Shown one piece after another: positions 9,112 through 38,152 of a stretch of 64,000 nt of DNA. This DNA comes from Clostridia bacterium (GTDB lineage: Bacteria; Bacillota; Clostridia; Oscillospirales; CAG-272). Under the pieces are notes generated by a model. The model ran no database searches and had not been told where the DNA came from. It saw only the letters and a program-made list of their open reading frames with translations. The position numbers and the translations under genes are program-made. Location of the stretch: assembly GCA_017455185.1 (NCBI GenBank), contig JAFTBN010000021.1:21897-85896 (forward strand). Reading direction: 5' to 3'. Numbering within the stretch: the first letter of the stretch is position 1; each line of letters begins with the position of its first letter.

Positions 9112-9142
9112 GCCACAGACACGCGCCTGATGATTCGGCGCG

Positions 9143-9179
9143 AAAAAGCCCGGAGGCAGCCAATGCCTCCGGGCTTTTT
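9143..9179. terminator. bidirectional intrinsic terminator (end of the VanY operon and of the 13.5-kb ABC operon)
   Basis: AAAAAGCCCGGAGGC / GCCTCCGGGCTTTTT forms an 11-bp GC-rich stem (9147-9157 with 9165-9175), flanked by A5 and T5. Confidence 0.88.
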
Positions 9180-9207
9180 CTGTTTGCTCCGGCCAAGAGC
9201 GCAGAAC

Positions 9208-10362
9208 TTAGTCTGCCGTCAAGCCGGAACGCTCTATGCCTTCTACCAGGAAATTCTGCAGGAACACATACAGAATCACCAAAGGCATAATAATGGTAAT
9301 ACCACACGTATTACGGATTGCCGCGTAATACAAATCCTGTCCGGCGTATTCCAACTTCAACGAATCCGGTATGCCAACCAAAGTGGTCATCAGCGAGGTC
9401 TTCGATGAAGTAAAGAACAGGCCTGTGTAGAAATCATCCGTCCACTGCCAGCTGAAGGCAAACAGGAAGACCGTGATCATCATCGGAACGGACAGCGGAA
9501 GAATAATCGTCAGGAACGTATGGAACGTATTGGAACCATCCAGATAGGCGGACTCTTCCAATTCATCCGGAATAGAGCGGAAGAACTGCCGCAACAGGAA
9601 GATATACAAACCGTTTTTGAATCCGAGTCCGGTTGCGGACATCAGAATCAGCGGCCAATACGTATTACACAGGTTCAGACCTGTATTCGTCCAAATTCCG
9701 TCGTAAACCATCTTCCCTGCTTCGGTTACATGATGCGGTGCGATGTTCAACCCCGTCAGGATTTTCACCGCCTCGCCCGTCACCTCGTCGGTTCCGACCG
9801 TAATTCCGTTACCGCCGAGCAGACTCAGCAATCCGTACAGATCGAAATAACGGAAGTGCATGAACATGGAAAGCTGAATGGTTTGGTGCGGCACAACCAT
9901 GGTCACCATGACCAACAGGAAGATAATGCCGCGGCCTTTGAATTTGAACTTCGCAAATCCATATCCGATCATGCAGCATACGAACACCTGCAGCACGGCG
10001 CTTGCGCCCGAAAGGAACAATGTGTTCGTAAAGGCCTGCCAGTATCCCAACTCGGTAAAGATGGCCTTGTAGATATCCAAAGTGAAATGCTTCGGAATCA
10101 AACGGACCGTTACGTCCACGAAGTCTTCGGGGCTCATAAAAGAACCGGCGATCTTCGAGATAAAGGGATACAAGACAACGTAGGAAATACCGATTAACAG
10201 AATCAGGCGGAAAATGTACCAGATGATTTTGCCAAGGAAGTATCCGTTCAGGAAACGGGCTTTTAACCGTTCCTTCAGAGGAGCACGTTCAAAATCTACG
10301 CGGATGCGATTCTTGCTTTCCCGTTTGACGCGGGGTGCATTCATATTATCAGACGCATTCAT
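9208..10362 (-). CDS. carbohydrate ABC transporter permease (MalG-like) with about 70-aa N-terminal extension
   Basis: 384 aa. EAA-loop region ESAYLDGSNTFHTFLTIILPLSVP and 6 predicted TM segments. AAGGGGG SD. Confidence 0.9.
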   Translation of the reverse strand: MNASDNMNAPRVKRESKNRIRVDFERAPLKERLKARFLNGYFLGKIIWYIFRLILLIGISYVVLYPFISKIAGSFMSPEDFVDVTVRLIPKHFTLDIYKAIFTELGYWQAFTNTLFLSGASAVLQVFVCCMIGYGFAKFKFKGRGIIFLLVMVTMVVPHQTIQLSMFMHFRYFDLYGLLSLLGGNGITVGTDEVTGEAVKILTGLNIAPHHVTEAGKMVYDGIWTNTGLNLCNTYWPLILMSATGLGFKNGLYIFLLRQFFRSIPDELEESAYLDGSNTFHTFLTIILPLSVPMMITVFLFAFSWQWTDDFYTGLFFTSSKTSLMTTLVGIPDSLKLEYAGQDLYYAAIRNTCGITIIMPLVILYVFLQNFLVEGIERSGLTAD

Positions 10363-10379
10363 GAGCGATACCCCCTTTC

Positions 10380-11360
10380 TCAGTCATTCTTCCGCTGATA
10401 GAAGACGAAGGCGGAAACAATTCCGGCGATTACGCCCACGATCAGGAAAATCAACAGGAAGTACATCCAGGACATGGCCGAACTGATCACCTGACCGTCT
10501 GTCTTTTCGTAGACGGTATCAATGTAAGCCATAACCACGTTTTTGGATGTGGTAAAGGAGTCGATGACCGTATATACGGCATTAACCAAAATCATCGGTG
10601 AAATCATCGGGAACGTAATCTTCCAGAAGGTTTCCCATGCGGTAGCGCCGTCCATCTTACAGGATTCGTAAATCGCAGGAGAGATGGACTGCAAGCCGGA
10701 CAGGAAGATCAGCATCTGAACACCCGAGCGGTTCACAATATCGAAGATGTTGTTTACCATCGTGGATACGTACGTCGCGAGTTCTGCGCCGACTTTCATC
10801 GACGAGAACAGGTACTGTACGTCCACGGCACTGACAATTTCAGCCGCGGCACTGGTTCCTTCGCCGGTATCAATACCGCTGGACGATTCCATGTAAGTAG
10901 ATAGGATGTTGCTTGCCTCAATGCTTTCCATGATACCGGTTGAAAGAATAACCGGGATAAAGAAGATTGCACGGAATGCCGCACGGCCTACCATCTTCTG
11001 GTTCAGCAGAACCGCCATAAACAGCGAGAACAGAAGAATCGCGGGAATATCAAACGCGAGATTCTTCAGACCGCTGATCAAAGACGGGATGAACCCTGTA
11101 TCCGTGAACAGAGCCTCGGAATAGTTTTCAAATCCAACCCACTCCAGTGTATAACCACCGCCGGCCAGGATATGAATCTTGTTGAAACTCAATTTGATTG
11201 AGTCAAAAATCATCGGCAGGTAAATCAATACAAACCCAATGATGAAAGGAAGTACAAACAACCAGCCTGCACGCGCCTTCTTCCGATCAAGGGAAACGAT
11301 TTTCCTTCTTTTGGAAGTCTTTGCACTGGCAGCCGTTGAAATATTCTGTTCGCTAGTCAA
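10380..11360 (-). CDS. sugar ABC transporter permease (MalF-like)
   Basis: 326 aa. EAA-loop region KMDGATAWETFWKITFPMISP. The first in-frame start is TTG at 11360, with GAGAGG 9 nt upstream. Confidence 0.85.
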   Translation of the reverse strand: MTSEQNISTAASAKTSKRRKIVSLDRKKARAGWLFVLPFIIGFVLIYLPMIFDSIKLSFNKIHILAGGGYTLEWVGFENYSEALFTDTGFIPSLISGLKNLAFDIPAILLFSLFMAVLLNQKMVGRAAFRAIFFIPVILSTGIMESIEASNILSTYMESSSGIDTGEGTSAAAEIVSAVDVQYLFSSMKVGAELATYVSTMVNNIFDIVNRSGVQMLIFLSGLQSISPAIYESCKMDGATAWETFWKITFPMISPMILVNAVYTVIDSFTTSKNVVMAYIDTVYEKTDGQVISSAMSWMYFLLIFLIVGVIAGIVSAFVFYQRKND

Positions 11361-11385
11361 TGTCAGTTACCTCTCTTTCCCTTAA

Positions 11386-14300
11386 TCAGTGATAAATCAT
11401 AACATACTCACCGCTCGGAATGGTGTATTCCACTGAGTTGTATGTTACATGCACGGTATAGGCGTTATAGTTCAGGATGAACGTCTTGTACGCCGTCTGG
11501 TCAATTCCGCCCTTGCCGCCGTATGTCACAGCCACAATGTTTCCGTTGTTGACCAGATATTTGTTTTCTTCCTCTGTCTCGGTTTTGACTTCTTCACTCT
11601 GATTATCCTTGTCGCGCTTCTTGCGGGCTTCGTCAATCAGTTCTTCCAGCTTGCTTACCGTATACATAGGCTGGCCGTTTTCATCCGTAACCTGCTCGGC
11701 TACGTCATTTTTAACGCCGGTATATGCAGAGGATTTTTCAAGCAGATCATTGAACGTGATGACTTCTTCCGAACTGGAATCATCCATCAGCTCGCTGACC
11801 GCAAGGCCGTTTTCGAAGATTGCCTTGGCAGCCTCCAGATAATCCCTCATTTCGGTTACCATGATGGTTTCCCCACCCTCAACCTCAATGAGCATTTCGA
11901 TGTTCTCGGCAATGGTGTCGAGCACTTCCTGCGCATCCTCAATCAGTTTGGTGATGGTTTCCGCGGCCAGGGCCGAATTGATAACCACATTCTCAAGCTG
12001 ACCGACGCGGGCCGTATACGTACGATACATGACCTTTACAGCCGATGCATTCTCGTTATATCCGGCGGAAGCCAGAGCTTTCTGATAGTTGGAATAAGCC
12101 ACATCCACGTTTTTGATATACGTCTGAAGGTTTTCAACCGATTCGTCGATATCCAGGATCGTGGTATAAGCCTCAGCCAGGATATCCGTCAGGGTCTCTT
12201 CCGAATTCTTCGCATACAGACGGGCCGCGCCGACCTTGGAAATCAATTCCATTGCGGCGTTCTTATCGTTCTCGACTTCCTGCTCGTGCGTAGCGTCAAG
12301 GACCTGCTTGATATCCGCCTGCAGCTCATCCAGGTCAAGCACACGAACTCCGGGCAGGAATTGATGCGCAATGATCGGCTTGGTCTGCAGATCCTTCAGG
12401 GCCGCATTCAATTCGGAATACATGGAAATGACGTCGTCCTTCCAGATATCATACCGAATCGAATAATACCGGCTGAGCTGGTAATCTTCCTTCAACTCCT
12501 CCGTGTTCTGGTAGGAGAGCACGAAATACACGCCCGCACCGTTTTCAATGGTCTTCAGCATGCTGTAGCCCGTATCGCCTTCCATATTCAGCGGAGAACC
12601 TGCAAACTGGATGTATCCATGCAGTACAACGCCGAGGAAAGGAACCACGTTGGAAGCCTTCACATACTTACTGGACTCGAGGTACGCATCGACGATATGA
12701 TCCGCATACTGCCATGTGTATACATTACCGCCTGACAGCATCACGCTCGGAACCTTTTCCTCAATGTAAGCCAGCGCTTTCTTGGTAAAGGCCTTTGCGT
12801 CCTCGCGGTTGTACGGATCGTCCTCATCGAAGTCGGAGTTCAACTCGGTACCCAGTGTTGAAACCGAGATACCCTGCACGTCATACTTCAGATACTTTTC
12901 GAGGAACTTCGTATAGAACCGTGAATATTGCGATGCAGAAATCGCCAATTCGAAGAAGTTGAGATATTTCTGCTGGGAAGCAGAATACGTTCTGCGTCCT
13001 GTATAACGGTTGTCAATCGTACGAATGGCATCCCGCTTCAGGGACAAACCGTCAAATGACTTCTGAGCATTCACGTATACAAAATCAAAGTCGGGATACA
13101 GCCCCATATGAGCGGTTTTGGTTCCGTCCTCCAGATTCTGTGCGTAATCCAGCAGTTCCTTGAAGTTGTACTCGCCTTTCTGTACCGCTCTTTCCCACTT
13201 CAGTTTGTAAGGAACACGGGAGTACATGCCTCCGTTTGCATATCCTACCATCTGGAAGTTTACATTGTTGATGCCGGCAGCCGAAAGGTCTTCATACATC
13301 GTTACCAGGTTTTCAAACGTGGTCAAAGGCTTCATCACATTTACCGGGAACGACAGAATCTGTTCGGTCACCTGCAGTGCACCGAATGTTTCAATGTACA
13401 GCGGGATATTTTCGTAAACGTCGGAATAGTTGAGACGGTTCAGAACGCCCTTCTTGACCAGATAGTTCCTGTATGCCTGAGCCATACCCAGCCATGTACA
13501 GGGATAATAATCGGTCAGACCGGCACTCTTTGCCAGATTGTCATCCGCCAGCATGATGTAGCGGATCTTGTAGTCCCCGGTGTATTTCCGGTTGGACACA
13601 ACCGTCCAGGTGCTGCTTGTCGTAACCGAAATGGAATCCGACAAGTCGTACGAGTCTTTCGGCCGAGGATTGAAATACGTCATGATCGTATTGTAATCAC
13701 TCAGGGAGCCGGCATGATAGGTTGCGATATCCGCAAGGGATTCACCCTCTTCCAGAATGCCTACGAAACCGACATCGGTCACCGACGAGGTAATGTCCTC
13801 ATCGTACAAATCCGCAACTTCCTCGGTCAATTCTTCCCGGGTCTTGATGGTAACGGATGTGGTCACATCCTCCTCCGTCTTCGGATCCGTATAACTCAAA
13901 AATTCCGAATTCTGCACAATTCCGAAAACCGGATACCGGACCGTCTTCTGATACGTACCGGAAATCACATGATACGCATAGTCGGTTCCGTATACCTTTC
14001 TGGAAATCGTGGTCGTCGTCTTATTGTTCAGATCCTCAAAGCGGAACAATGCACCCGATCCGTCCGGATAGAACGTATAGCCGGTATTGTCCGAGTGACC
14101 TGCGCCCATATAAGGCAGAATGCTGATGTACTCGATGGCATATGCACTGGAGTCGAACCGGATGCCGTTGGTAGGCAGACGAACCACCATGCCATCCTCA
14201 TCCAGCGTATACTCCAGAGACAGACGGAACACGGGAGACTTGTCGTCTTCGCTGACGTAACCGGTCATTTCGTGGTCTTCGTCCATCATATCGAAGGTAT

Positions 14301-15162
14301 ACAGCGGTGCGTAGGTTTTGATCATATCCTCGCACAGGTTGACTTCCACCGCACGGGCATCCGGGTCGAAGACGTAAATCGGACCGTTGGCCAGCGCAGG
14401 GAATTTCCTGAGTGCCGCAGCCTTGGATTTTTCAGAGCTCATCTCATCCAAATCGTACAAGGAATAGTACACTTTGAATTTGGAATACGAGAACTCACTG
14501 AGCAAACCCGCGTCTCTGCTCTCAGTCAGAGGTTCGAGGATCAGCGTATCAAACCGTTCCTTTGTAATCAGTCTGGGAACCAGTTTTCTCTGAGCCTGGT
14601 CGCCGATGATGTATTCAACGCGTACACCGTTTTTGATTTTACGGGTTGTAATCTGACCGTTCATCGCAGCCTGCGAAAAACTGTACATGAACTTCTGCGT
14701 GTCGTTGTCCGTATAACGGATGACAACCTGCGAGAACAATGCATTCTTCGTCGAATCGGAAGCGATGGAAGTCGATGCATCGTACGGATTCGTGAACAGG
14801 ATCTGACCCGTCAGCGTATTGCGCAACGCGATTTCCCCGTTGTACTTGAACACATACATTTCATAAACACCGTCGGAACTCACAAAATAGGGATCTCCGA
14901 AGAGAGCCAGTTTTTCATCCGGCGTATTATAAATGAAGGTTTCGGTTGCGAACGGATTGGCGGTCGAGTTCTTTTCCGTACGGGTCTTATAACCCGCGTA
15001 AGCCTCCAGATAGTTGACCAGGTCGCTTCCCGTGAGGTTCGAAACATCGATCTCCGTTTCTTCGGCCGCGGCCACCTGGAAGACGCTCAAAACGGCGAAA
15101 GCCGTCAAAAGCATTACAGCACTCAGAAGGAATGAAATAATTCTAATCATTTTTTGATTCAT
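11386..15162 (-). CDS. large secreted protein of unknown function (DUF5696-like, from memory)
   Basis: The ORF track gives a TTG at 15177. I prefer the ATG at 15162, with GGGAGG (15170-15175) 7 nt upstream, giving 1258 aa. Signal peptide ...FQVAAA/EE. No characterised catalytic motif recognised. The C-terminal roughly 330 aa look helical or coiled. Confidence 0.75.
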   Translation of the reverse strand: MNQKMIRIISFLLSAVMLLTAFAVLSVFQVAAAEETEIDVSNLTGSDLVNYLEAYAGYKTRTEKNSTANPFATETFIYNTPDEKLALFGDPYFVSSDGVYEMYVFKYNGEIALRNTLTGQILFTNPYDASTSIASDSTKNALFSQVVIRYTDNDTQKFMYSFSQAAMNGQITTRKIKNGVRVEYIIGDQAQRKLVPRLITKERFDTLILEPLTESRDAGLLSEFSYSKFKVYYSLYDLDEMSSEKSKAAALRKFPALANGPIYVFDPDARAVEVNLCEDMIKTYAPLYTFDMMDEDHEMTGYVSEDDKSPVFRLSLEYTLDEDGMVVRLPTNGIRFDSSAYAIEYISILPYMGAGHSDNTGYTFYPDGSGALFRFEDLNNKTTTTISRKVYGTDYAYHVISGTYQKTVRYPVFGIVQNSEFLSYTDPKTEEDVTTSVTIKTREELTEEVADLYDEDITSSVTDVGFVGILEEGESLADIATYHAGSLSDYNTIMTYFNPRPKDSYDLSDSISVTTSSTWTVVSNRKYTGDYKIRYIMLADDNLAKSAGLTDYYPCTWLGMAQAYRNYLVKKGVLNRLNYSDVYENIPLYIETFGALQVTEQILSFPVNVMKPLTTFENLVTMYEDLSAAGINNVNFQMVGYANGGMYSRVPYKLKWERAVQKGEYNFKELLDYAQNLEDGTKTAHMGLYPDFDFVYVNAQKSFDGLSLKRDAIRTIDNRYTGRRTYSASQQKYLNFFELAISASQYSRFYTKFLEKYLKYDVQGISVSTLGTELNSDFDEDDPYNREDAKAFTKKALAYIEEKVPSVMLSGGNVYTWQYADHIVDAYLESSKYVKASNVVPFLGVVLHGYIQFAGSPLNMEGDTGYSMLKTIENGAGVYFVLSYQNTEELKEDYQLSRYYSIRYDIWKDDVISMYSELNAALKDLQTKPIIAHQFLPGVRVLDLDELQADIKQVLDATHEQEVENDKNAAMELISKVGAARLYAKNSEETLTDILAEAYTTILDIDESVENLQTYIKNVDVAYSNYQKALASAGYNENASAVKVMYRTYTARVGQLENVVINSALAAETITKLIEDAQEVLDTIAENIEMLIEVEGGETIMVTEMRDYLEAAKAIFENGLAVSELMDDSSSEEVITFNDLLEKSSAYTGVKNDVAEQVTDENGQPMYTVSKLEELIDEARKKRDKDNQSEEVKTETEEENKYLVNNGNIVAVTYGGKGGIDQTAYKTFILNYNAYTVHVTYNSVEYTIPSGEYVMIYH

Positions 15163-15177
15163 TTTCACACCTCCCAA

Positions 15178-17316
15178 CTACGCCCTGTATTGCAGCTCGA
15201 CCACAATATTTGTAATCAAGCTGATCAATTTTGCAACGAGAGTGGAGAACAGTACAGCCACAAACATGATAAATACAATTCCCACAATCGTTCCGAGGAA
15301 CGTAATAAAGTTCTTGCCCAGCGAATAATCGTGTGTCACCATCGTGCCGAAGAAGAGCAAAATGCCCATCCAGACAAACGCAAGCGTTGTGAACAGGGAG
15401 ATAAGTCCTGCTTCGCTGGAAGTTGTGAAGTTCGACACAATCGTCGCCGGAATAACAAGCAGCGGAATCGGTACCAGACAATAGGAAGCCGCGATGTAAA
15501 CATCTTTGAAACTTCCTTCGCCGTCAAACAAGGTGGTCAGACACCAGTTCGCTACGACAAACAGGAACAGCGGCACCAGAACGCTGAGCGCCTGTCCCCA
15601 GATGGTCATATAGGATCTTCTCGGATTGAAGACATATCCCTGACCGATACTTTGATAGAAGAATGACAGAATGGCCAGGACGTTGAAGGTAACGGCTGCC
15701 CGGACAGAACCGCGGTGTTCGTGTTTCAGATCCCAGAAGCCGTCAAACGGATGCAAGATCAGATGCAATCCGTACCACAGTTCCTGCGCATAGGTCTTTC
15801 TTGCCTTTCCATTAATGGCAGCCGCTGCATTGACCTTTCCTGCCTTCTTGAACAGCAGAACAAATCCGACAATTGTGGCGGCAATAATGACAATGAGGAT
15901 AAAGAAGAACGTGGACATCCAGTTCTTACGAACTTCCTTGTACGCGTCGGACCAGTTGGACGTGTCATATGCGCGTTCAAAGTATTCCAGCGATTCCTTG
16001 TACTCACCCCGTCGGTACATGGCCTGGCCGATACCGACGTAAGCAGCGTCAAAATTGGAGTTTCTCTGCAGCACTTCTCTCCAGCATGCGATTGCGTAAT
16101 CGTAATCCAGAGAGTTTTCCGCCTCAATGGCCTGAATCAGAAGGTTACCGTATTCGGTACGGTTGAAGACAACCACACAGTTGTTGCCCTTATCCAGAAC
16201 CAGAATTCTGTCACCCTGATAGGTAATGGCCTCGATGTTGGAAATGGAGCCCAGCATGGAGCCTGTATCGCCGAAGGCAAACAGCAGGTTTCCGTCAAAG
16301 TCATACGTATAAATCTTTCCTCGTTTTTCATCGATGATGGACCAGGTCTTGGCCGGACCGACGGCCACGTCGATGATAGAGGAAACACCGCTGTAGGTGT
16401 CCTTGGTTATACGTGAATAGTTGATTTCACCGGCGGGCGGCCAGAAGCCGTTCCGTCTCATGATTTCCGCGCCCTTTGAGTTAAGGAGCTTGACCGGCAA
16501 ATAATCTCCGCTGGTCGCCTTGCCCGTAATCGCAGCTGCAACCCTGGATTCATCGATGCTGTTTGTCGTTACATAGATGAAACCGTCGGATGTGATCGAG
16601 ATGTTGTTGAACTCAGTCGATACGTTTTTCCTGGACTGCTTTTGCTGTTCTTTGGTCTGGAATCTGCGGACAATCGCTTCCCAGGCACTCACGCTAACCG
16701 CCTGCGCACCGATGAAGGAAGTGAATTCTCCTTCCTCAGTCAGGACGATGATTCCCTGGTAGGTTGTAGAGGATACAACGAACACGCGGTTGTTGGCGTC
16801 GACTGCAACCGCAACCGGCTTGTACACGGCGTTTGCATCAAACAGAGCACTCTTCGGCTGAGTCAGGATCCGAAGGAATTTGCCTTCCCGGTCAAACGTA
16901 ACGATCCGGTTGTTACCGGTGTCACATACCCAGATCCGATCCTTGGACACGAATACACCCTGCGGTTCCTTCAACGCGTCGTCAATACCTTGTTCATTAA
17001 TAAAGGTAGAGAGAGAGTATTTGAATTTGAAATACCGGTCGAGAATGACAACACGGTTGTTGCCCTTGTCGGCTATGTATACATTTTCATACTCATCGGT
17101 CAAAAGATCCTGCGGGTTGCTCAAATCCAAATCCAGCCCCATATCAACCGAAGACACCGACATGGTTGCCGAGTATGCGTCGGGGGAATAGAGCGCGTTG
17201 CCGCTGATGGAGTACGTGTATGTCTGATAAGCGGAAGATGCTCCGGCCGGAATGGCCAGGACCGTCAGAAGGGCAAGCGCAATGACAATCACTTTTGTAA
17301 GAATATTCTTTTTCAT
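15178..17316 (-). CDS. NHL-repeat beta-propeller / TPR / Yip1-domain membrane protein
   Basis: 712 aa with a signal peptide. Repeated NHL-type blades (KGNNRVVILD, TGNNRIVTFD, ANNRVFVV, KGNNCVVVF) and a TPR-like segment (AAYVGIGQAMYRRGEYKESLEYFERAY). The C-terminal roughly 240 aa hold 5-6 hydrophobic helices of Yip1 type. Confidence 0.8.
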   Translation of the reverse strand: MKKNILTKVIVIALALLTVLAIPAGASSAYQTYTYSISGNALYSPDAYSATMSVSSVDMGLDLDLSNPQDLLTDEYENVYIADKGNNRVVILDRYFKFKYSLSTFINEQGIDDALKEPQGVFVSKDRIWVCDTGNNRIVTFDREGKFLRILTQPKSALFDANAVYKPVAVAVDANNRVFVVSSTTYQGIIVLTEEGEFTSFIGAQAVSVSAWEAIVRRFQTKEQQKQSRKNVSTEFNNISITSDGFIYVTTNSIDESRVAAAITGKATSGDYLPVKLLNSKGAEIMRRNGFWPPAGEINYSRITKDTYSGVSSIIDVAVGPAKTWSIIDEKRGKIYTYDFDGNLLFAFGDTGSMLGSISNIEAITYQGDRILVLDKGNNCVVVFNRTEYGNLLIQAIEAENSLDYDYAIACWREVLQRNSNFDAAYVGIGQAMYRRGEYKESLEYFERAYDTSNWSDAYKEVRKNWMSTFFFILIVIIAATIVGFVLLFKKAGKVNAAAAINGKARKTYAQELWYGLHLILHPFDGFWDLKHEHRGSVRAAVTFNVLAILSFFYQSIGQGYVFNPRRSYMTIWGQALSVLVPLFLFVVANWCLTTLFDGEGSFKDVYIAASYCLVPIPLLVIPATIVSNFTTSSEAGLISLFTTLAFVWMGILLFFGTMVTHDYSLGKNFITFLGTIVGIVFIMFVAVLFSTLVAKLISLITNIVVELQYRA

Positions 17317-17325
17317 GACGCCCCC

Positions 17326-18198
17326 TTAATCTTTCATACCGGACGAACCCATCGTTTCAATGATGTTCGACTGAGAAATGACGAATACGATAATCGGGAC
17401 AGCCATCATCAGCACGGTGGAAGCCGCAGATGCGCCCGCACGCCGAATACCGCCTGCGGTAATCTGTCCGATTGCGTAGTTGAACGACTTCAGCTGTTCG
17501 GAATAGATATAAATGGATGCGCCTGCATTCCACAATCCCTGGAAGCTGTAAATGATCAACGTCAGCCATGCCGGTTTAACCATCGGCATTGCAATCGTCC
17601 AGAACGTTCTGAATTCGTTTGCACCGTCAAGCCGGGCACTTTCCAGAATTGCGTCGGCCACGTTGGTATCCATGAACTGCTTCATCAGATAAAGGCCCAG
17701 AGTGGACCCCCACGCAGGAATGATGATAGCCCAGTAGGTATCAATCATTTTGAAAGCGCTCATTAATATAAAGGAAGTAACCGTGGTGACCGTCGCGTGG
17801 AACATCAGGGATGTCTGGATGGTCTTGAACATGAACCTTCCGCCCGGGAACTTGATCTTTGCCAGGGCGTAAGCGCACATGGAAGCAATCAGCAAATGTC
17901 CGAATGTTCCGGCTATGGTAGTAAAGACGGTGTTAAAAATGTACCGGGAAAACGGAACCCAGGATGTATTCATCAAAGAAAACAGGTCTTTGAAGTTCCG
18001 GAACGTCGGCTTCAAAACGAAGAAACGAGGCGGATACATCCAGAGTTCATCCAGAGGCTTCAGGGACTGCATCAACGTATAAAGCATCGGCAGGAACATG
18101 AAAGCGCCCAGGATTACCATGATGACCGTAATGCCGGCATCGCCTCCCGCGGAACGGGAAAGGACGACTCTATGATTTCTTGTTCTCATTTTAGCCAT
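17326..18198 (-). CDS. carbohydrate ABC transporter permease (MalG-like)
   Basis: 290 aa. EAA-loop region SARLDGANEFRTFWTIAMPMVKP and 6 TM segments. Confidence 0.9.
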   Translation of the reverse strand: MAKMRTRNHRVVLSRSAGGDAGITVIMVILGAFMFLPMLYTLMQSLKPLDELWMYPPRFFVLKPTFRNFKDLFSLMNTSWVPFSRYIFNTVFTTIAGTFGHLLIASMCAYALAKIKFPGGRFMFKTIQTSLMFHATVTTVTSFILMSAFKMIDTYWAIIIPAWGSTLGLYLMKQFMDTNVADAILESARLDGANEFRTFWTIAMPMVKPAWLTLIIYSFQGLWNAGASIYIYSEQLKSFNYAIGQITAGGIRRAGASAASTVLMMAVPIIVFVISQSNIIETMGSSGMKD

Positions 18199-18204
18199 AC
18201 GTCA

Positions 18205-19143
18205 TCACCTACCCAGTTTCGCAATGATATTCTTGACCAGCATGTTCGCCCCGATCATGATCAGGAACAGGATCACGGCGATAGCGGAAGAGTAACCGAT
18301 TTCATAACGCTGATTTGCGTAGTCCTCCAAATGGTGCACAATGGTATGCGCCGCATAGTCGACCGACGGGAATCCGCACAGGGCCGTAACAATGCCGCCG
18401 AAGCCAAAGGAACCGGTAATGGACATAATCGCACCGAACATCAACTGCGGGCCCATGGAAGGAAGCGTAATGTAATACAATTCCTGCCAGCGGTTCTTAA
18501 CACCGTCAACCGCCCCCGCTTCATACAGTGACTTGTCCACGCCCTGCAAACCTGCGATAAAGGAAAGGAACGCGGTACCAAGTGAAGTCCACAAGGCAAC
18601 GATGATACACAACGGCATAACGTATTTGGCATTCTGGAAGAACGCAATCGGTTTGACGATAACGCCCAGCTCAATCAGCATGGCGTTGGCCCAGCCGTAA
18701 GCATCCGATGAGAACAGGGTTGCCCAAATCAAATACACCTGACCGGAGATGGACGGCGCATAGAAAATCAATGTGACCAGCGCGCGTACCTTCGGAGGCA
18801 GCTCATTGATGAACCATGCAACCAGGAACGAGAGCAAATAGGAAGCAGGTCCGACAATGGCCGCGAAGATGAATGTGTTCTTGACCGCAATCAAGAAAAT
18901 ATCATCATCAAAGAAAAGTGAAATGTAGTTGCTGACGCCCACAAAATGAGGCCATTGCAACATGTTGAAATCCGTAAAGCTGATAACAGCAGACAGAACA
19001 ACGGGCAGGACGGTGAAGAGAGTGAACACAATCATGTAAGGTGCCACCATTACATAGGCAACCTTGTTCTTCTTCATCTCTTTCCAGATCCATTGACGGC
19101 GGGTGATATCTGTCCGGCGTACAGCTTTCAATTCTTTAGACAT
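18205..19143 (-). CDS. sugar ABC transporter permease (MalF-like)
   Basis: 312 aa. EAA-loop region AGAVDGVKNRWQELYYITLPSMGP. AAGGAG SD. Confidence 0.9.
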   Translation of the reverse strand: MSKELKAVRRTDITRRQWIWKEMKKNKVAYVMVAPYMIVFTLFTVLPVVLSAVISFTDFNMLQWPHFVGVSNYISLFFDDDIFLIAVKNTFIFAAIVGPASYLLSFLVAWFINELPPKVRALVTLIFYAPSISGQVYLIWATLFSSDAYGWANAMLIELGVIVKPIAFFQNAKYVMPLCIIVALWTSLGTAFLSFIAGLQGVDKSLYEAGAVDGVKNRWQELYYITLPSMGPQLMFGAIMSITGSFGFGGIVTALCGFPSVDYAAHTIVHHLEDYANQRYEIGYSSAIAVILFLIMIGANMLVKNIIAKLGR

Positions 19144-19180
19144 AAAGTATACTCCTTATCTAAGATCTCACACGAAAGAC

Positions 19181-22100
19181 TCAATACGTCTTCAGTGCAT
19201 CAGCTGCATCCTGCAGATACTTTCCGATTCGTGCAACAATGGTTGCCTCGTTCTTCACGTTTCCATCCGCAACATCCGCTTCGCCCGCGGCAATGGAACC
19301 GGTCGGATCCAACCGCGACGCATGAGCCAGGAACTGTTTGGAATAATCCTCGAGGCTGACGATGTACTTGGCCTCGACTTTGGAACGCAAATCATGGGCA
19401 TTGGCCATTGCCAACGATGCTTCCTCAATCAGATTGTCGTAGTTGGAGGATTTCTTTGCCAGCAACTCGAACAAACTGCTTACCATATCGATTCTCTTGG
19501 AGGCAAGCGTCTGACCGATTTCCAGTGTTTCAAGGTCAAACTCTTTTCTCTTACGGGAGATTTCCTTATTAATGGTATTGATGTAACTCAACAATTCGGA
19601 TACGGGGTTCGCATCCTTGTTGTAAGCGGCAAGGAACGCAAATCCGGTATAACGGTCAATGATATAGGTGCCGGGATAGTTCGGCACGGACGCCAGATTG
19701 TTGAACTGTGCGAACACTTCCTCATACTCATCCACGGTCCAAGGCATGCTGAACAGCGCATTCTTGTTCGCAGTGTTGTGTTTTGCGGAGTCGCCCATGA
19801 TGGCAACCATCTCATTCGCGTATTTGGTCTGGCAGCTCGGGCCCGTGTACCACTGGAGATACTTCCAGGCGGAATCCTTATCCCGTGAGCCGGTTACGAT
19901 AACGTCTGCCGTAACACCCGAAATGGAGCAGTTGTTGATGTTTCCGTTCTCGTCCTCAATGCCCGGCAGCGGAGCAAACGTCCACAGACCGTCGATTTCG
20001 GTTGCGAAGACCTTCAACTGGTTGTACATTCCGGTATAGTCCTGAATGCAAATCGGCATTTCACCGGTACGGAAACGGTTCGCCGCGTTGTAGGAATACG
20101 GGAACGAGTACATGGTGAACATGTTGCACATGGTTTCAAATGCGTCCAGACCGACCTGACTGTCCAGGTTGATGCGCATTCCGTTGTCGGCAAAGAGTTC
20201 ACCGCCGTTCTGATACAGGAAAATCTTATAGTCCGTCGTAACACCGATTTCCATCTTGTTCGCATCCAGAACCACCAGCGCGTCGTAGATATCGGTCCAG
20301 GTTTTCGGAATCTCGATTCCCAGGTTGGCCAGAATATCCACGCGGACAAACATCATCGGGAATCCCTGTACTTCGGGAAGTCCGTAATAATGCTGAACGT
20401 TCTTGGAATCCGCGACTCCCAGGACCAGCATGGCCGCATCGGTAAACTGGGTGATGACTTCGTTAAAGCCTTCCATATTTTCAATGGATTCGAGCGCGCC
20501 GCGGATTGCGTAGTTGATTACGTCGCCCTGACCCAGGCCCAGATAGACATCCGGTCCTTTTCCGGCCAGGATGGACGGAAGCAGCGTACCGCCGCTGACG
20601 AGCTTCAGATCCGCCGCGATGTTGCTCTCGGGCGTGAATTCATTGGTAATCAGGTTGCGGATAACCTGAGACTGGTCACGGCCGTAAGCCACCCACACTT
20701 CGATGGAGGCATCGGTACCGGCTGCGTCCACGCTTCCCATGTTGTTGTAGTCACGGACAAAGGACTGGAAGAAGCTCTTCAGTTCGTGGCCCAGGCTCTT
20801 GAAGAATCCGGCCTTGCCAACCAACTTGTAATAGTTTTCCTTGTCGTTCGGGTCGGTGCGGTTCGTACCGCAGATGACCAGATAATCCAGCATCAAGGGT
20901 TGTGTCTTTGCATCGGAAAGGAATGTACCCATATTACCGATGTAAGTCTTCAGCGTTTCAAGGCTCTTTGCGATTTCATCCTCGTCCTTGCCCATACGGT
21001 CCAGAACGATGGAAACTTTCTCCAGCGTTGCCGTGTTGGAGGAAGCCGTTCCTGCCGTCTCCTCCATGAAGGCAATCAACTCGGTCAGCCGTCTGGACTG
21101 AATGATCATATCAATCAGCGTATCCGGCATAACGCGGGAGAAGTTGTAATCACGGTATGTATCCGGATTGGAACCGGTCAGTTTGATGATGTTCAGGTAA
21201 TCGGCGTTGATGCTGTTCATCGTCTTCTCGATTTCCTGAATGACCTCGCCCATGGCGCCCAGGGTTACTTCAAAGCGGACGGTATACGTTACGCCTTTCT
21301 CGAAATAGAATTCGTACGTATTGTCAACCTTATGGTCTCCGTCATTGTCCCGGCCGTTCGTCAGGCCCTGTGCCTGCCAATCCGTGCTGTAATTGAATCT
21401 GAGTTCGGTTGCTTCCTTGAAAGGAATGCCGTTGTAGTATCCGGCAGTTCCCTCTGCGGCTCCGTCACTGAAGATGTACAGGTTGCGGCTGGTGAAAATA
21501 CCGTCTAGGATGGACTGCTTGAAGCGGGCAAGAATCTGATACATACCGCTTTCTTTCACCCGGAATTTGTATTCAATCCACTGACCGGAAGTCTGCCACT
21601 TTTCGCCGCCGATGGTGTTGAGCACCATGCGGGTGACGTCTGTCGGGGAGTTGGCAGCGGAGCTGCGCTCCTCCACCGGATAAATCGTATTGGTGGAAGT
21701 GGCCGAAGGATATTCGGCTTCAATCTTCACCACGTCGGACGCCTTGTTCTTCGAGCCCAGGCCGTTCAGATACTCCTCGTAGGATTGCAGGAATGCATGC
21801 GGAACCAGGCGGATGGATTTGATGGCCATCGGCTCGTTCACACCTTCCAGCGAGAATGTAATCATGCCCTGCTCGTCCGGCTCAATCGCAAAAATGAACG
21901 TTTCGGAATAGTATCCGCTGTTGTCGCGGAACTCAAACGATGTCCATTCAGGCGCCTGCAGAGCGGTCGGTCTCAACTCGTTGTTGTCCCCGTCCGTCCT
22001 GAAGAACCGCAAAGCGATTTCGTCGTTCAGATATTTGTCGATATCCGAATTCCAGTATTCAGGCATCTCATACGTAATCCTGGTACCGTTTTCAAGGTCC

Positions 22101-22714
22101 TTCGTGGTATATTTCAGGCCAAGCTCGGCCGCCTTGCTCGTATACTCGGATACGTTCTCCCCTTTCACTAGGTCCAGATTCCCGCCGATGTAATCAAATC
22201 TCCAGATTTTCGGCATCGTAAGGGAATATGCCTCGGAAAAAGGAGGTACTCCGTTGATGTAGAACTCACGCTCGATGGAAGCGGATTTTCCCTCTTCCGG
22301 ATAATAATCCACAACGATACTGTACAGCGTCGTCTCGGTCACGCCTTTCTCGGCGAGATTGATGACCCATGAAACCGAGCCGTTTGCAGGTGTATGCAAA
22401 GCGGTAACCCCGTCATAGGTGACCTCGCTCACTTCGGCGTCCGTTTTTTCGGGATCGTAATCCAAAGCGTTAATCTCGATTGAACTGGTCGCATGCTTGC
22501 AGTTCGCATACTTCTCCAGATACTCTTCGTACGAAATGGCATTGAGTCGCGCGGCATAATCGGCCACAGAGATATTGGTGGTCGTATCCACGCGATCGTC
22601 ATCCGTCTGCGTATCGGTTCCGTCGTCCGCTGACGCAACGAATGTGCCTCCGCACAAAAGCATCACTAGAGCAAGTATCAAAGCTGCAAGTCTTTGACCC
22701 ATCGTGATCTTCAT
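19181..22714 (-). CDS. giant extracellular solute-binding-type protein (N-terminal beta-sandwich/CBM-like and helical regions fused to an SBP fold)
   Basis: 1177 aa with an AGGAGG SD and signal peptide (...FVASA/DD). The C-terminal roughly 440 aa resemble family-1 sugar-binding proteins (LKLVSGGTLLPSILAGKGPDVYLGLGQGD ... YKIFLYQNGGELF ... WKYLQWYTG). The N-terminal roughly 600 aa are unrelated to SBPs. Confidence 0.85.
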   Translation of the reverse strand: MKITMGQRLAALILALVMLLCGGTFVASADDGTDTQTDDDRVDTTTNISVADYAARLNAISYEEYLEKYANCKHATSSIEINALDYDPEKTDAEVSEVTYDGVTALHTPANGSVSWVINLAEKGVTETTLYSIVVDYYPEEGKSASIEREFYINGVPPFSEAYSLTMPKIWRFDYIGGNLDLVKGENVSEYTSKAAELGLKYTTKDLENGTRITYEMPEYWNSDIDKYLNDEIALRFFRTDGDNNELRPTALQAPEWTSFEFRDNSGYYSETFIFAIEPDEQGMITFSLEGVNEPMAIKSIRLVPHAFLQSYEEYLNGLGSKNKASDVVKIEAEYPSATSTNTIYPVEERSSAANSPTDVTRMVLNTIGGEKWQTSGQWIEYKFRVKESGMYQILARFKQSILDGIFTSRNLYIFSDGAAEGTAGYYNGIPFKEATELRFNYSTDWQAQGLTNGRDNDGDHKVDNTYEFYFEKGVTYTVRFEVTLGAMGEVIQEIEKTMNSINADYLNIIKLTGSNPDTYRDYNFSRVMPDTLIDMIIQSRRLTELIAFMEETAGTASSNTATLEKVSIVLDRMGKDEDEIAKSLETLKTYIGNMGTFLSDAKTQPLMLDYLVICGTNRTDPNDKENYYKLVGKAGFFKSLGHELKSFFQSFVRDYNNMGSVDAAGTDASIEVWVAYGRDQSQVIRNLITNEFTPESNIAADLKLVSGGTLLPSILAGKGPDVYLGLGQGDVINYAIRGALESIENMEGFNEVITQFTDAAMLVLGVADSKNVQHYYGLPEVQGFPMMFVRVDILANLGIEIPKTWTDIYDALVVLDANKMEIGVTTDYKIFLYQNGGELFADNGMRINLDSQVGLDAFETMCNMFTMYSFPYSYNAANRFRTGEMPICIQDYTGMYNQLKVFATEIDGLWTFAPLPGIEDENGNINNCSISGVTADVIVTGSRDKDSAWKYLQWYTGPSCQTKYANEMVAIMGDSAKHNTANKNALFSMPWTVDEYEEVFAQFNNLASVPNYPGTYIIDRYTGFAFLAAYNKDANPVSELLSYINTINKEISRKRKEFDLETLEIGQTLASKRIDMVSSLFELLAKKSSNYDNLIEEASLAMANAHDLRSKVEAKYIVSLEDYSKQFLAHASRLDPTGSIAAGEADVADGNVKNEATIVARIGKYLQDAADALKTY

Positions 22715-22795
22715 GCTCGTTCCTCCTAAAAAAATTGCTCAAACTAATACATAATCGGCCCTCAGACCGCAAGCATCTGAGGTCCCTCGCGCACG

Positions 22796-22817: not shown

Positions 22818-22846
22818 ATCTTACCAAAAAGCGAAAATCGTTTCAA
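22818..22846 (-). promoter_or_regulatory. candidate promoter of the 13.5-kb ABC operon
   Basis: Minus strand reads TTGAAA (22846-22841), 17-nt spacer, TGg-TAAGAT extended -10 (22823-22818). The predicted leader is about 95 nt. Confidence 0.5.
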
Positions 22847-35188: not shown

Positions 35189-35255
35189 GTATAAGGCGAA
35201 AGATGTGCTCGCCCTATAATTTGTATAAAAAATGGTTCATAATAAGGAGAAAAGT

Positions 35256-37040: not shown

Positions 37041-37057
37041 ATCTGAACTTCTTATCT

Positions 37058-37097
37058 CCCGCGCAGTCCGGTTTTCCGGATTGCGCGGGTTTTCTTT
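37058..37097 (+). terminator. intrinsic terminator after pckG
   Basis: CCCGCGCA (37058-37065) pairs with TGCGCGGG (37082-37089), followed by TTTTCTTT. Confidence 0.85.
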
Positions 37098-37149
37098 CCG
37101 AAAAGAGCCCCGGAGTGCAAAAATCTTGATTCGGACTCCTCTTGTTTTC

Positions 37150-37178
37150 TTGACGAAGCAAGTCCCGTGTTGTATAAT
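37150..37178 (+). promoter_or_regulatory. candidate promoter of the PfkB kinase gene
   Basis: TTGACG (37150-37155), 17-nt spacer ending in TG, TATAAT (37173-37178). Confidence 0.7.
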
Positions 37179-37207
37179 GAAGGCGAAAACACAGGAGGTG
37201 TACTCAT

Positions 37208-38152
37208 ATGAAAAAAGTACTCTGCATCGGCTCAATTACCGTAGATGTCATGATCAAACCCGTCAACGAACTGCCCAAGGCAGGCACGCTGGTTGCGGTG
37301 GATTCGGTTTCCACCCACATCGGAGGCTGCGCGTCCAACGCGGCTGCGGACCTCGCGAAAATCGGCGTTCCCGTCGTCATGTCCGCCCTGGTCGGCGACG
37401 ATATGATGGGCGATTTCTTCAAGAAGACCATCTCTTCCTACGGCGTGGACATCCGCGGCGTCAAGACGTCCAAAGAAGTCGGAACCACCATTTCCACCGT
37501 TCTGATTTCGGACAACGGCGAACGTTCCTTCCTTTATAATCCCGCTTCCGCAGCCGTGTTCACCGATACGGACATCCCGGACGAACTGATTCAGGAATGC
37601 GACATTCTGTTCATCGGCGGCGCTCTTTTGCTCACCTCCTTTGACGGTGCACCGGCCGCCCGCGTCATGAAACGCGCACGGGAACTCGGAAAGATTACCG
37701 TTATGGACACCGCATGGGATTTCGACGACATCTGGCTTCCCAAGATCCGCGAAGTCCTTCCCTATCTGGATTATTTCATTCCTTCGGTTGAGGAAGCCGA
37801 AAAACTGACCGGCGAAACCGAACCCGAAAAGATTGCGGATAAACTTCACGACCTGGGCTCGACCCACATCGCGGTCAAAGTCGGAAAGAGAGGCTCCATG
37901 ATTTCTCCCGTCAAGGGCGAGTACAAGTATCTGCCCACCTATTCCGGCATCAAGCGCGTAGACACCACCGGTGCCGGCGACAGCTTCTGCGCAGGATTTC
38001 TGACCGGTCTTGCCAACGACTGGGATATGGAAAAATCCGCCCAGTTCGGAAATGCGGTTGCTTCCCACTGCATCCAGGCCATCGGTGCAACGACCTGCAT
38101 CCCGCCTATGAACGAAGTGCTGAAATTCATGGAAACCCATACGGCCGGCTGA
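37208..38152 (+). CDS. PfkB-family carbohydrate kinase
   Basis: 314 aa with an AGGAGG SD. Has the PfkB signature DTTGAGDSFCAGFL and an N-terminal GG-containing sugar-binding motif. Confidence 0.9.
   Translation: MKKVLCIGSITVDVMIKPVNELPKAGTLVAVDSVSTHIGGCASNAAADLAKIGVPVVMSALVGDDMMGDFFKKTISSYGVDIRGVKTSKEVGTTISTVLISDNGERSFLYNPASAAVFTDTDIPDELIQECDILFIGGALLLTSFDGAPAARVMKRARELGKITVMDTAWDFDDIWLPKIREVLPYLDYFIPSVEEAEKLTGETEPEKIADKLHDLGSTHIAVKVGKRGSMISPVKGEYKYLPTYSGIKRVDTTGAGDSFCAGFLTGLANDWDMEKSAQFGNAVASHCIQAIGATTCIPPMNEVLKFMETHTAG

Follow-up and report, generated by a model that had tools for sequence, protein, structure and literature searches.

A probably exported DUF5696 protein with a predicted family-129 glycoside hydrolase fold is encoded between two permease pairs in a conserved seven-gene operon

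Introduction

Glycoside hydrolases of clan GH-D and their relatives (GH31, GH36, GH97 and GH66) share an N-terminal beta-sandwich followed by a (beta/alpha)8 barrel, with an Asp nucleophile on the loop that follows strand 4 of the barrel; in clan GH-D (GH27, GH31 and GH36) the acid/base is an Asp on strand 6. A strand-4 nucleophile is established for GH31, GH36 and GH129, the last of which has a three-domain fold composed of a beta-sandwich, the barrel and a C-terminal beta domain. DagB (ZgGH129, ZGAL_3152), the exo-alpha-1,3-(3,6-anhydro)-D-galactosidase of Zobellia galactanivorans, is encoded in a Bacteroidota carrageenan locus and comprises a distorted beta-sandwich with protruding helices, a TIM barrel and a small, Ig-like C-terminal beta domain (PMC5698469). 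The GH129 alpha-N-acetylgalactosaminidase of Bifidobacterium bifidum, NagBb (5WZN, 5WZP, 5WZR), is a retaining alpha-glycosidase that lacks a signal peptide and is cytosolic (PMC7232152). D435, its catalytic nucleophile, is equivalent to D486 of DagB, whereas its acid/base Glu478 is conserved neither in DagB nor in the homologues of DagB, which uses a different acid/base and an Asp of its N-terminal domain, D202 (PMC5698469).

Secreted GH-like proteins also occur in Gram-positive glycan utilisation loci of the CUT1 type, in one transcription unit with an SBP_bac_1 binding protein and MalF/MalG-type permeases, the ATPase being encoded elsewhere. Here we analyse a gene from a 64,000-nt stretch of the genome of a rumen or gut Clostridia bacterium (hereafter the window), whose product had been proposed from its sequence to be a secreted, novel glycan depolymerase or modifying enzyme feeding a transporter. 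The protein belongs to DUF5696, a family for which we know of no function, structure or publication; neither "DUF5696" nor "PF18952" is named in any searchable paper.

Results

A probably exported member of a large family

The gene consists of an uninterrupted ORF that begins with an ATG at position 15162 and encodes 1258 aa (Table 1), preceded by a good ribosome-binding site (GGGAGGTG, 7 nt 5' of the ATG); the public gene call starts four codons downstream, yielding 1254 aa. No strand had been named earlier for this interval; the gene lies on the minus strand, and the plus strand over 11386-15162 is full of stops and contains shadow ORFs only. The family label given in the original prediction is correct: PF18952 matched with 457.6 bits (E = 9e-137; curated gathering threshold 25.6), in two stretches that cover profile positions 7-579 of 612. 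We found more than 1400 homologues of the protein, within a family of 4161 clusters at 50% identity. Among Clostridia of the gut and rumen the family occurs in at least 396 species, and many soil degraders of the genera Paenibacillus and Cohnella also carry it.

Table 1. Features of the DUF5696 gene and its operon, in window coordinates
Feature	Position (nt)	Strand	Description
DUF5696 protein ORF	11386..15162	-	complete; 1258 codons + TGA stop at 11386-11388
Signal peptide	15064..15162	-	residues 1-33; MNQKMIR / 21-residue hydrophobic core / QVAAA; predicted cleavage A33-E34
N-terminal beta-sandwich domain	13543..14949	-	residues ~72-540; from AlphaFold2 secondary structure
D367	14062-14064	-	invariant motif YPDGSG, N-terminal domain
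D394	13981-13983	-	invariant motif YGxD, N-terminal domain
Predicted (beta/alpha)8 barrel	12388..13494	-	residues ~557-925; from DSSP of the models, Foldseek and conservation
D777 codon	12832..12834	-	motif LNSDF, loop after barrel strand 4; candidate nucleophile
E873 codon	12544..12546	-	motif IE(N/Y)GA; family-wide conserved carboxylate
Helical bundle/stalk	11599..12333	-	residues 944-1188 (~245 aa); helices up to 67 residues
C-terminal beta tail	11389..11538	-	residues 1209-1258; IVAVTYGG...FILNYN...YTIP; pLDDT >90
Gene 1	19181..22714	-	1177-aa secreted solute-binding protein; SBP_bac_1 at residues 686-959
Genes 2 and 3	17326..19143 (18205-19143, 17326-18198)	-	first MalF/MalG-type permease pair; BPD_transp_1
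Gene 4	15178..17316	-	712-aa membrane protein
Genes 6 and 7	9208..11360 (10380-11360, 9208-10362)	-	second, divergent permease pair
Promoter-like site	22818..22846	-	TTGAAA, 17-nt spacer with TG, TAAGAT; consensus scan only
Terminator hairpin	9142..9180		strong, 17 pairs; directly 3' of last gene

The protein has a single hydrophobic segment, residues 4-34, which ends in QVAAA|EE; no transmembrane segment was found besides it. An Ala-x-Ala motif, "..VSAA(E/D)", is kept at the same position in 69 homologues. Because the sole hydrophobic segment is N-terminal and carries this conserved motif at its end, a cleavable Sec signal peptide, as originally predicted, is likely, and an extracytoplasmic location of the protein is supported.

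A predicted three-domain architecture with a helical insertion

Two independent AlphaFold2 models (pLDDT 80.1, pTM 0.79; pLDDT 82.2, pTM 0.70) both displayed the three-domain fold of GH129. The segments NIPLYIETFGA, NFQMVGYANGG and GLYPDFDFVYV, which had been likened to a sugar-processing barrel, indeed form strands of the predicted (beta/alpha)8 barrel in both models, as do VSTLG..NSDFDEDDPYN and VPFLGVVLHGY..NMEG. Two inserts interrupt the preceding beta-sandwich, namely a helical one of about 100 residues (~200-300) and an acidic one modelled with low confidence (~455-515).

The long helical region that follows the barrel is real but shorter than the ~330 residues first estimated, and rather than a separate module it is an insertion within the C-terminal beta domain, which AlphaFold2 assembles from residues 930-940 (nt 12343-12375) and the beta tail. 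In the second model the helices occupy residues 873-939, 941-961, 968-1024 and 1029-1047 (construct numbering), and PDB sequence matches to this region were coiled coils only. The insertion is absent from short homologues, in which the motif "IxxHxFL" (H933) runs straight into the tail. That tail, already noted in the original prediction as short and beta-rich, comprises five strands (residues 1209-1257) and is kept in all homologues, including forms of 750 aa. A coiled-coil surface protein anchored through LPXTG, SLH or CWB elements was rejected, as we detected no such Pfam domain and no C-terminal hydrophobic anchor; the structural coiled-coil class is also disfavoured because the helical part is an insertion without counterpart in the short family members.

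Structural neighbours are glycoside hydrolases

Foldseek searches with both models ranked GH129 structures first (target-normalised TM 0.63-0.68, E = 4e-21 to 8e-12). DagB (5OPQ/8RZK) was the best match, with E = 4e-21 and 4e-18 for the two models and a TM of 0.63, followed by NagBb (5WZN/5WZR) with E = 2e-17 and 6e-14 and a TM of 0.66-0.68. All further matches were to other glycosidases, namely GH31 (YihQ/YicI/MYORG), GH36, GH97 and GH66, at E = 1e-9 to 1e-5 and TM 0.3-0.5. The search for a TIM barrel suggested with the original prediction therefore returned an enzyme-like fold whose best neighbours are all glycoside hydrolases, and the DUF5696 protein is predicted to fold like those of family 129, at ~10% identity and ~7 A rmsd to its structural neighbours.

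At the sequence level we found no related CAZy family or PDB entry by Pfam, phmmer or profile searches, in agreement with the earlier statement that no signature of a defined CAZy family is recognisable. A Pfam scan that included segments at E <= 10 returned DUF5696 alone, with neither Glyco_hydro_129 nor any GH-D family, and neither 5WZN nor 5OPQ was among the matches when all PDB sequences were searched with phmmer and with two profiles.

The DUF5696 protein and DagB have the same domain order and are both extracytoplasmic, and an Asp after strand 4 combined with a carboxylate from the N-terminal domain would be a further likeness between them. However, the DUF5696 protein is twice as long, owing to additional helices (~100 aa) in its beta-sandwich domain, extra beta subdomains in barrel loops and the 245-aa helical insertion; E517 and E531 of DagB are without clear counterparts in it, and its gene resides in an ABC operon, unlike that of DagB. 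NagBb shares the predicted three-domain fold but is not secreted, and no equivalent of its Glu478 is evident. For clan GH-D and its relatives the matches are significant but the TM values much lower; their signature motifs are absent, and the acid after strand 6 is not family-wide.

Conserved carboxylates and a candidate nucleophile

Across 34 family sequences (22-62% identity), four carboxylates stood out: D394 (34/34), E873 (33/34), D367 (32/34) and D777 (31/34). N859 is likewise kept in all 34, and almost all strands of the barrel are followed by an invariant residue (G594, G640/G645, D777/R786, N813/Y815, P841/F842 and N859). The most conserved loop, 774-788, has a pLDDT below 50 in both models, and a few family members carry His or Asn at position 777. 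By its place after strand 4, D777 is a candidate catalytic nucleophile, equivalent to D486 of DagB and D435 of NagBb by topology and not by superposition. D821 and D/E829, which lie 44 and 52 residues past D777 at the usual acid/base positions, are present in 18/34 and 24/34 sequences, respectively, and no family-wide carboxylate occurs at the usual acid/base distance from D777 among the 34. Of the paired acidic residues that were to be sought, the family thus retains conserved carboxylates but no defined pair, D777 alone being rationalised topologically. A non-canonical second carboxylate would have a precedent, because DagB uses D202 and an acid/base other than that of NagBb. The DUF5696 pattern is of a kind typical of polyspecific GH families, which combine a fixed catalytic core with variable specificity residues.

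The gene is embedded in a seven-gene importer operon

The DUF5696 gene is the fifth of seven genes separated by gaps of 6-37 nt, in the order big binding protein, two permeases, NHL/Yip1 membrane protein, DUF5696, two permeases. Neither the 650-aa N-terminal nor the 200-aa C-terminal extension of the gene 1 product matched any family. Genes 2 and 3 are 70-88% identical across the clade, and gene 7 has an insertion within its BPD_transp_1 domain. The product of gene 4 has an extracellular NHL beta-propeller and a multi-pass Yip1 domain, in addition to a signal peptide, a TPR and a single transmembrane helix. The promoter-like site lies ~100 nt 5' of gene 1.

The module is transcribed in ruminant gut metatranscriptomes, in which a single RNA contig of 13,505 nt (window 9250-22754) spans all seven genes. 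RNA coverage stops at 22754 on the promoter side and ends at the operon boundary on the terminator side; flanking depth was 0 in all four runs on the promoter side and 0 to 1.7 in the terminator-end bin. SBP_bac_1 and BPD_transp_1 permeases are thus found in one transcription unit with the DUF5696 gene, as in CUT1-type importers. Pfam revealed no MalK/MsmX-type ATPase among the seven genes, akin to the Gram-positive glycan utilisation loci, from which the module differs in its two permease pairs, its binding protein of 1000-1200 aa, its NHL/Yip1 membrane protein and the fixed position of the GH-like gene between the permease pairs. We found no description of such a seven-gene module in the literature.

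Gene order is identical in 83/83 related loci and recurs in five distant Bacillota (Butyrivibrio, Paenibacillus, Cohnella, Neobacillus and one other genome). In these remote operons start and stop codons overlap, and an ATPase gene directly precedes the module in Paenibacillus (ugpC) and Neobacillus (ABC_tran/TOBE_2). The remote modules lie in a glycan-utilisation context: they adjoin GH26/GH113/GH9, GH30/GH35/GH42, GH2/GH38 or GH43 genes, together with two-component systems for sugar sensing or LacI regulators. Within the clade, the surroundings include obg, der and a VanY-like D-Ala-D-Ala carboxypeptidase gene in the window, and alaS in three loci (L001-L003). The rigid gene order, over a very large evolutionary distance and beside different GH sets, suggests that DUF5696 belongs to the import machine itself as one of its subunits.

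Discussion

We lean slightly towards the view that the DUF5696 protein is exported and works at the cell surface as a glycoside hydrolase from an uncharacterised family, with a GH129/GH-D-like three-domain core and a coupling to an unusual ABC importer. We infer that Sec export and cleavage of the signal peptide would come first, after which the C-terminal face of the barrel would bind an oligo- or polysaccharide. The reaction would be retaining and probably of the alpha-glycosidase type, with D777 as nucleophile and a second invariant carboxylate assisting, either E873 or one of the two on N-terminal domain loops, D394 and D367. The giant binding protein of gene 1 would capture the trimmed products for import through both pairs of permeases, with energy supplied by an ATPase whose gene lies elsewhere. 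The 245-residue helical hairpin would form a clade-specific stalk, for which the most plausible role is spacing or docking of the enzyme relative to the cell wall or the NHL/TPR/Yip1 membrane protein. For the novel extracellular glycan enzyme of the original prediction, the analysis supports an enzyme-like fold, conserved carboxylates, an extracytoplasmic location and, by sequence, a place outside the defined GH families, but it does not define a catalytic pair. Depolymerase activity is not established, the closest structural relatives being exo-acting alpha-glycosidases, and neither is a role of simply feeding the transporter: the genes are invariably co-operonic, but the fixed order suggests an integral subunit.

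An importer subunit need not be an enzyme, and the GH129-like fold could instead serve, after recruitment to a multi-component ABC importer, as a receptor that binds glycan, as a gate or as a scaffold. With no cleavage involved, it would retain substrate or position the big binding protein and the NHL/Yip1 protein above the two translocons. The rigid position between permease pairs from Clostridia to Bacilli, the overlapping start and stop codons of the remote operons and the occurrence of the module beside unrelated GH sets, as expected of a generic chassis, would all suit such a role, as would the His or Asn found at 777 in some members and a catalytic pair that is not definable as a whole among the 34 sequences. 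Lectin-like derivatives of enzymes, however, usually lose conserved residues of the kind retained here, where four carboxylates and Asn, Arg and His are kept at loops after barrel strands at 22-62% identity, and every significant structural neighbour is an active glycosidase; we therefore consider a non-catalytic subunit unlikely.

If the protein is an enzyme, it might act on the envelope or extracellular polysaccharide of the cell itself instead of on dietary glycan, with the importer salvaging sugars released during turnover or recycling. The housekeeping genes around the clade operon (obg, der, VanY-like, alaS), its presence in at least 396 species genomes and the unusual conservation of the permeases (70-88% identity) are in line with this, but plant-glycan hydrolases, LacI regulators or two-component systems for sugar sensing surround the five distant modules, and Pfam detected no cell-wall-binding, SLH or LPXTG module, which makes an envelope substrate improbable. 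To the idea that the same fold supports other chemistry, as an extracellular transglycosylase or glycan-modifying enzyme with no net hydrolysis, we likewise give little credence: retaining GH-D-like enzymes commonly transglycosylate, as established for GH31 and GH36, and the acid/base candidates D821 and D/E829 are not family-wide, but nothing speaks specifically in its favour, and Pfam revealed no motif for an acceptor site or a cofactor.

A more far-reaching version of the favoured glycoside hydrolase reading, which we put forward tentatively and regard as rather doubtful, is that DUF5696 proteins are founding members of a new GH family and the built-in ectoenzyme of a new class of multi-subunit Bacillota importer. 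Were this so, the importer would consist of a giant binding protein, two full permease pairs, an NHL-propeller/Yip1 scaffold and DUF5696, the variable coiled-coil insertion would be a docking or spacing stalk, and depolymerisation and uptake would be physically coupled, in a monoderm counterpart of Sus-like systems.

The structural placement of DUF5696 near GH129 and GH-D yields a concrete hypothesis, open to testing through mutation of D777, D394, D367 and E873, and cultured carriers (Butyrivibrio fibrisolvens D1, Paenibacillus cellulosilyticus and Cohnella luojiensis) make the system experimentally tractable. DUF5696 would be a candidate new CAZy family if activity is shown. Through the seven-gene module, Gram-positive fibre degraders may possess an abundant means of glycan capture that has escaped recognition, with relevance for carbohydrate turnover in rumen and gut and for enzyme discovery.

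The DUF5696 gene lies in a seven-gene transporter operon

Translation confirmed a real gene where the original prediction had placed one, reading on the minus strand through 1258 codons from an ATG at 15162 to a TGA at 11386-11388, with GGGAGGTG 7 nt upstream of the start codon; the public gene call (protein P0001 of our homologue list) begins 4 codons later and yields 1254 aa. A plus-strand reading of 11386-15162 was rejected, its frame being full of stops, and two long plus-strand ORFs opposite the gene are antisense shadows that could mislead a strand-blind reader. The sole hydrophobic stretch of the protein spans residues 4-34 and ends in QVAAA followed by EE, and the N-termini of homologues agree, with a '...VSAA(E/D)' motif at the same place in the 69-sequence alignment; a cleavable Sec signal peptide, as originally proposed, is therefore likely.

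The operon encodes two full MalF/MalG-type permease pairs, mutually only ~23-27% identical, and one binding protein, and none of its seven genes encodes an ATPase. Intergenic gaps measure 6-37 nt, with a promoter-like site upstream of gene 1 and a 17-bp hairpin downstream of gene 7; an Rfam scan of the whole window returned zero RNA families. The extensions of the binding protein (residues 1-650 and the helical ~970-1177) match no Pfam family, its hydrophobic segment is confined to the N-terminus, and its 'LLCGG' is not a canonical lipobox. Its closest PDB relative, the Listeria sophoro-oligosaccharide binder Lin1841 (E = 1e-10), was uninformative as a guide to the ligand. The gene 7 permease carries a long insertion in BPD_transp_1 (profile positions 4-180 spread across residues 132-374), which may form an extracytoplasmic loop docking a partner.

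Features of the window discussed in the text
Feature	Position	Strand	Description
Operon	9208-22714	-	seven genes
Gene 1	19181-22714	-	binding protein, 1177 aa, secreted, SBP_bac_1 at residues 686-959
Genes 2 and 3		-	first permease pair
Gene 4		-	712 aa: signal peptide, NHL propeller, TPR, one transmembrane helix, Yip1 multi-pass domain
Gene 5	11386-15162	-	DUF5696
Genes 6 and 7		-	second, divergent permease pair
Gene 7	9208-10362	-	permease, 384 aa
DFDEDDPYNRE	12802-12834	-	residues 777-787 of the DUF5696 protein
Antisense ORF	11449-12735	+	428 aa
Antisense ORF	13108-15135	+	675 aa
GH78	26550-28772	-	alpha-L-rhamnosidase
ORF	35214-37235	-	673 aa, zero Pfam matches at E <= 1e-3
GH2-type	38213-41242	-	1009 aa, exo-beta-D-glucosaminidase Ig domain
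Rhamnosidase-domain	45459-47558	-	second protein with rhamnosidase six-hairpin domain
GxGYxYP	47780-50146	+	788 aa, putative glycoside hydrolase family
GxGYxYP	50186-52594	+	802 aa, tandem paralogue of the preceding
ORF	52848-54593	-	581 aa, zero Pfam matches at E <= 1e-3

The DUF5696 gene was found in many ruminant gut metatranscriptomes, and a single 13,505-nt contig from one bovine run spans window 9250-22754, exactly the seven genes. In the four RNA runs examined, depth was 0 throughout on the promoter-side flank and 0 to 1.7 in the terminator-side flank bin, where the non-zero values came from contigs starting inside gene 7 at 9250-9270. Because the contig covers the operon only and its flanks are near zero, these data are consistent with in vivo expression of the operon as one polycistronic transcript, and argue against DNA carry-over. 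One contig of metatranscriptome run X8 skips 302 nt in the first permease gene (18770-19073) with only 26 nt on its shorter side, probably through misassembly or strain variation.

Elsewhere in the window, the presence of GH78, rhamnosidase-domain and GH2-type genes identifies the host as a glycan degrader. The tandem GxGYxYP paralogues belong to another uncharacterised GH-like family.

The module extends to distant Bacillota

When the seven proteins were searched by tblastn, the gene order was identical in 83/83 related loci (68 complete, the others interrupted by contig ends), with the permeases 70-88% identical and the DUF5696 protein only 41-59%. The same module occurs where DUF5696 proteins are only 22-28% identical, with the NHL and Yip1 parts there fused or split in two genes. 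It adjoins genes for GH43 and for a paired histidine kinase and response regulator on the Butyrivibrio fibrisolvens plasmid pNP243, directly follows a ugpC-type ATPase in Paenibacillus cellulosilyticus, and lies between a MalK-type ATPase and GH2 and GH38 genes in Neobacillus kokaensis; it precedes GH26, GH113 and GH9 in Cohnella luojiensis, and GH30 and GH35/GH42 in one further remote genome. The proposed coupling of the protein to a transporter was thus borne out both in the 83 loci and in five remote genomes, and the varied hydrolases beside the distant loci mark the module as an ancient and modular system for carbohydrate uptake in Bacillota, one that moves with different hydrolase sets. 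The four-permease layout and the NHL/Yip1 membrane protein are conserved from Clostridia to Bacilli, including the five remote loci (L084-L088). Literature searches (Yip1 with solute-binding; NHL repeat with permease) found no description of the module, and the layout appears undescribed.

DUF5696 (PF18952; 457.6 bits, E = 9e-137) is the sole Pfam match of the protein, so the label originally given was correct, as was the view that sequence places it in no defined CAZy family. Pfam scans of three protein segments at E <= 10 gave DUF5696 and noise, nothing else; no NCBIfam model matches the protein; and DUF5696 or PF18952 is mentioned in no paper in the searchable literature. A full HMMER search of 1.84 billion representatives found 4161 clusters at E <= 1e-3 and 1464 at E <= 1e-30, the best 150 matches all being close DUF5696 members, and pattern scanning, with each species represented by one genome, detected the family in at least 396 genomes. 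Nearly all of the 80 loci listed are from uncultured Clostridia, Eubacteriales or Oscillospiraceae of rumen, caecum, colon or faeces. Some Paenibacillus genomes, e.g. Paenibacillus sp. 32352 and P. hamazuiensis, carry two paralogues each (homologue pairs P0312/P0317 and P0325/P0331), which would be consistent with module copies that each serve their own substrate.

The predicted fold is closest to GH129 enzymes

Since phmmer and two profile searches against the full set of PDB sequences gave nothing beyond coiled-coil proteins, matching the helical region, and spurious interferon-gamma matches, we built two AlphaFold2 models: model 1 of residues 38-960 (69 sequences, pLDDT 80.1, pTM 0.79) and model 2 of residues 72-1258 (60 sequences, pLDDT 82.2, pTM 0.70). 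In the predicted fold, residues ~72-540 form a beta-sandwich into which helices are inserted, residues ~557-925 form a (beta/alpha)8 barrel, and a small C-terminal beta domain comes last, an order that matches the beta-sandwich, TIM barrel and Ig-like domain described for the GH129 enzyme DagB (PMC5698469); the segments originally quoted as alternating like a sugar-processing barrel are predicted barrel strands. Foldseek searches of the PDB, the check suggested for an enzyme-like TIM-barrel, returned GH129 at the top for both models: DagB/ZgGH129 (5opq, 8rzk; E = 4e-21 and 4e-18), followed by NagBb (5wzn, 5wzp, 5wzr; E = 2e-17 and 6e-14), with target-normalised TM-scores of 0.63-0.68 over ~900 alignment columns. 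Below these ranked other glycosidases only, of GH31 (YihQ, YicI, MYORG), GH36, GH97 and GH66.

Judged by these models, the protein would fold and work most like GH129 enzymes. Membership of GH129 was not found by Pfam, phmmer or profile searches of the PDB, and by sequence the protein is assigned to DUF5696 only. Its size, its insertions, its location and its context set it apart from GH129: NagBb is cytosolic (PMC7232152) and DagB periplasmic and encoded in a Bacteroidota locus (PMC5698469), whereas the DUF5696 protein is predicted to be exported and belongs to a Bacillota transporter operon. On the modelled structure, we rate it as a TIM-barrel protein of glycosidase type whose family is uncharacterised and whose gene belongs to an unusual transporter module.

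Members of the family reach 2545 aa, with short ones of 750-990 aa including Butyrivibrio and Paenibacillus proteins, and the length of the helical insertion varies widely. In model 2, helices of up to 67 residues lie between residues 944 and 1188, followed by an acidic low-confidence linker and five strands at 1209-1257 (pLDDT > 90). In short members, the conserved 'IxxHxFL' (H933 here) leads straight into the same 'VTYxNG...(L/V)NYN' strands, and the 245-residue helical bundle is therefore an insertion specific to this clade, placed within the C-terminal beta domain. The helices and beta tail of the original prediction thus held, but not the ~330-residue length or the separate module. That this stalk offsets the cleaved signal peptide, short forms being membrane- or lipid-anchored instead, is not a strict rule, since there are gut forms of 955 aa in which the signal peptide looks cleavable and the stalk is missing.

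Conserved residues outline a candidate active site

Many acids are invariant inside the clade, and four carboxylates were still kept once Butyrivibrio, Paenibacillus, Cohnella and Neobacillus proteins at 22-28% identity had been added (34 sequences in all): D394 (YGxD, 34/34) and D367 (PDGSG, 32/34) in the N-terminal domain, D777 ((S/T)D(F/Y), 31/34) in the loop after predicted barrel strand 4, and E873 (IExGA, 33/34). Other conserved residues are N859, P841 and G849 (34/34 each), R786 (29/34), N813, Y815 and H848. In the models, at least one conserved residue follows nearly every predicted barrel strand, as is usual for TIM-barrels with a pocket at their C-terminal face. The nucleophile of GH129, GH31 and GH36 enzymes is located in the loop after barrel strand 4, a place that D777 would match, by topology only; the loop holding it (774-788) has pLDDT < 50 in both models. 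In GH129 itself, DagB D486 is equivalent to NagBb D435 (PMC5698469).

The residues from D777 onwards (777-787) form a DxDxD calcium-loop-like stretch, modelled with very low confidence, that is clade-specific and absent in distant DUF5696 members. NagBb uses Ca2+. An EF-hand-like calcium loop, suggested by the clade motif DFDEDDPYNRED, was not retained as a trait of the family, since DYNSRYRASRGD or DYLEERYTDREA occupies that site in remote homologues.

A proposed surface glycosidase and its alternatives

The best-supported reading, which we hold to be somewhat better than an even bet, takes the protein to be a glycosidase at the cell surface, built on a GH129-like core and representing a new family. 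The candidate novel extracellular glycan enzyme originally envisaged is partly supported, by the enzyme-like fold, the conserved acids, the export and the coupling to a transporter, but not by a defined acid pair: four carboxylates are family-wide, whereas the acid/base candidates D821 and E829, 44 and 52 residues past D777, are kept in only 18/34 and 24/34 sequences. This missing acid/base, the fixed position of the DUF5696 gene and the generic association with differing GH sets favour the main rival, in which the fold has become non-catalytic and serves the importer as a receptor or scaffold, a reading we consider rather unlikely. By analogy, the lack of a family-wide acid/base would not speak strongly against catalysis, because the NagBb acid/base is not conserved in DagB either, where the N-terminal-domain Asp D202 is essential (PMC5698469). 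An enzyme whose substrate is an envelope polymer of the cell itself, in keeping with the housekeeping gene neighbourhood in this clade, seems improbable, and different chemistry on the same fold no less so.

For a surface glycosidase, D777 would serve as the nucleophile of a probably retaining mechanism, with alpha-linked sugars as substrates. Glycans trimmed by the DUF5696 protein, positioned by its stalk and the NHL/TPR/Yip1 protein, would then be captured by the giant binding protein and taken up through the two translocons.
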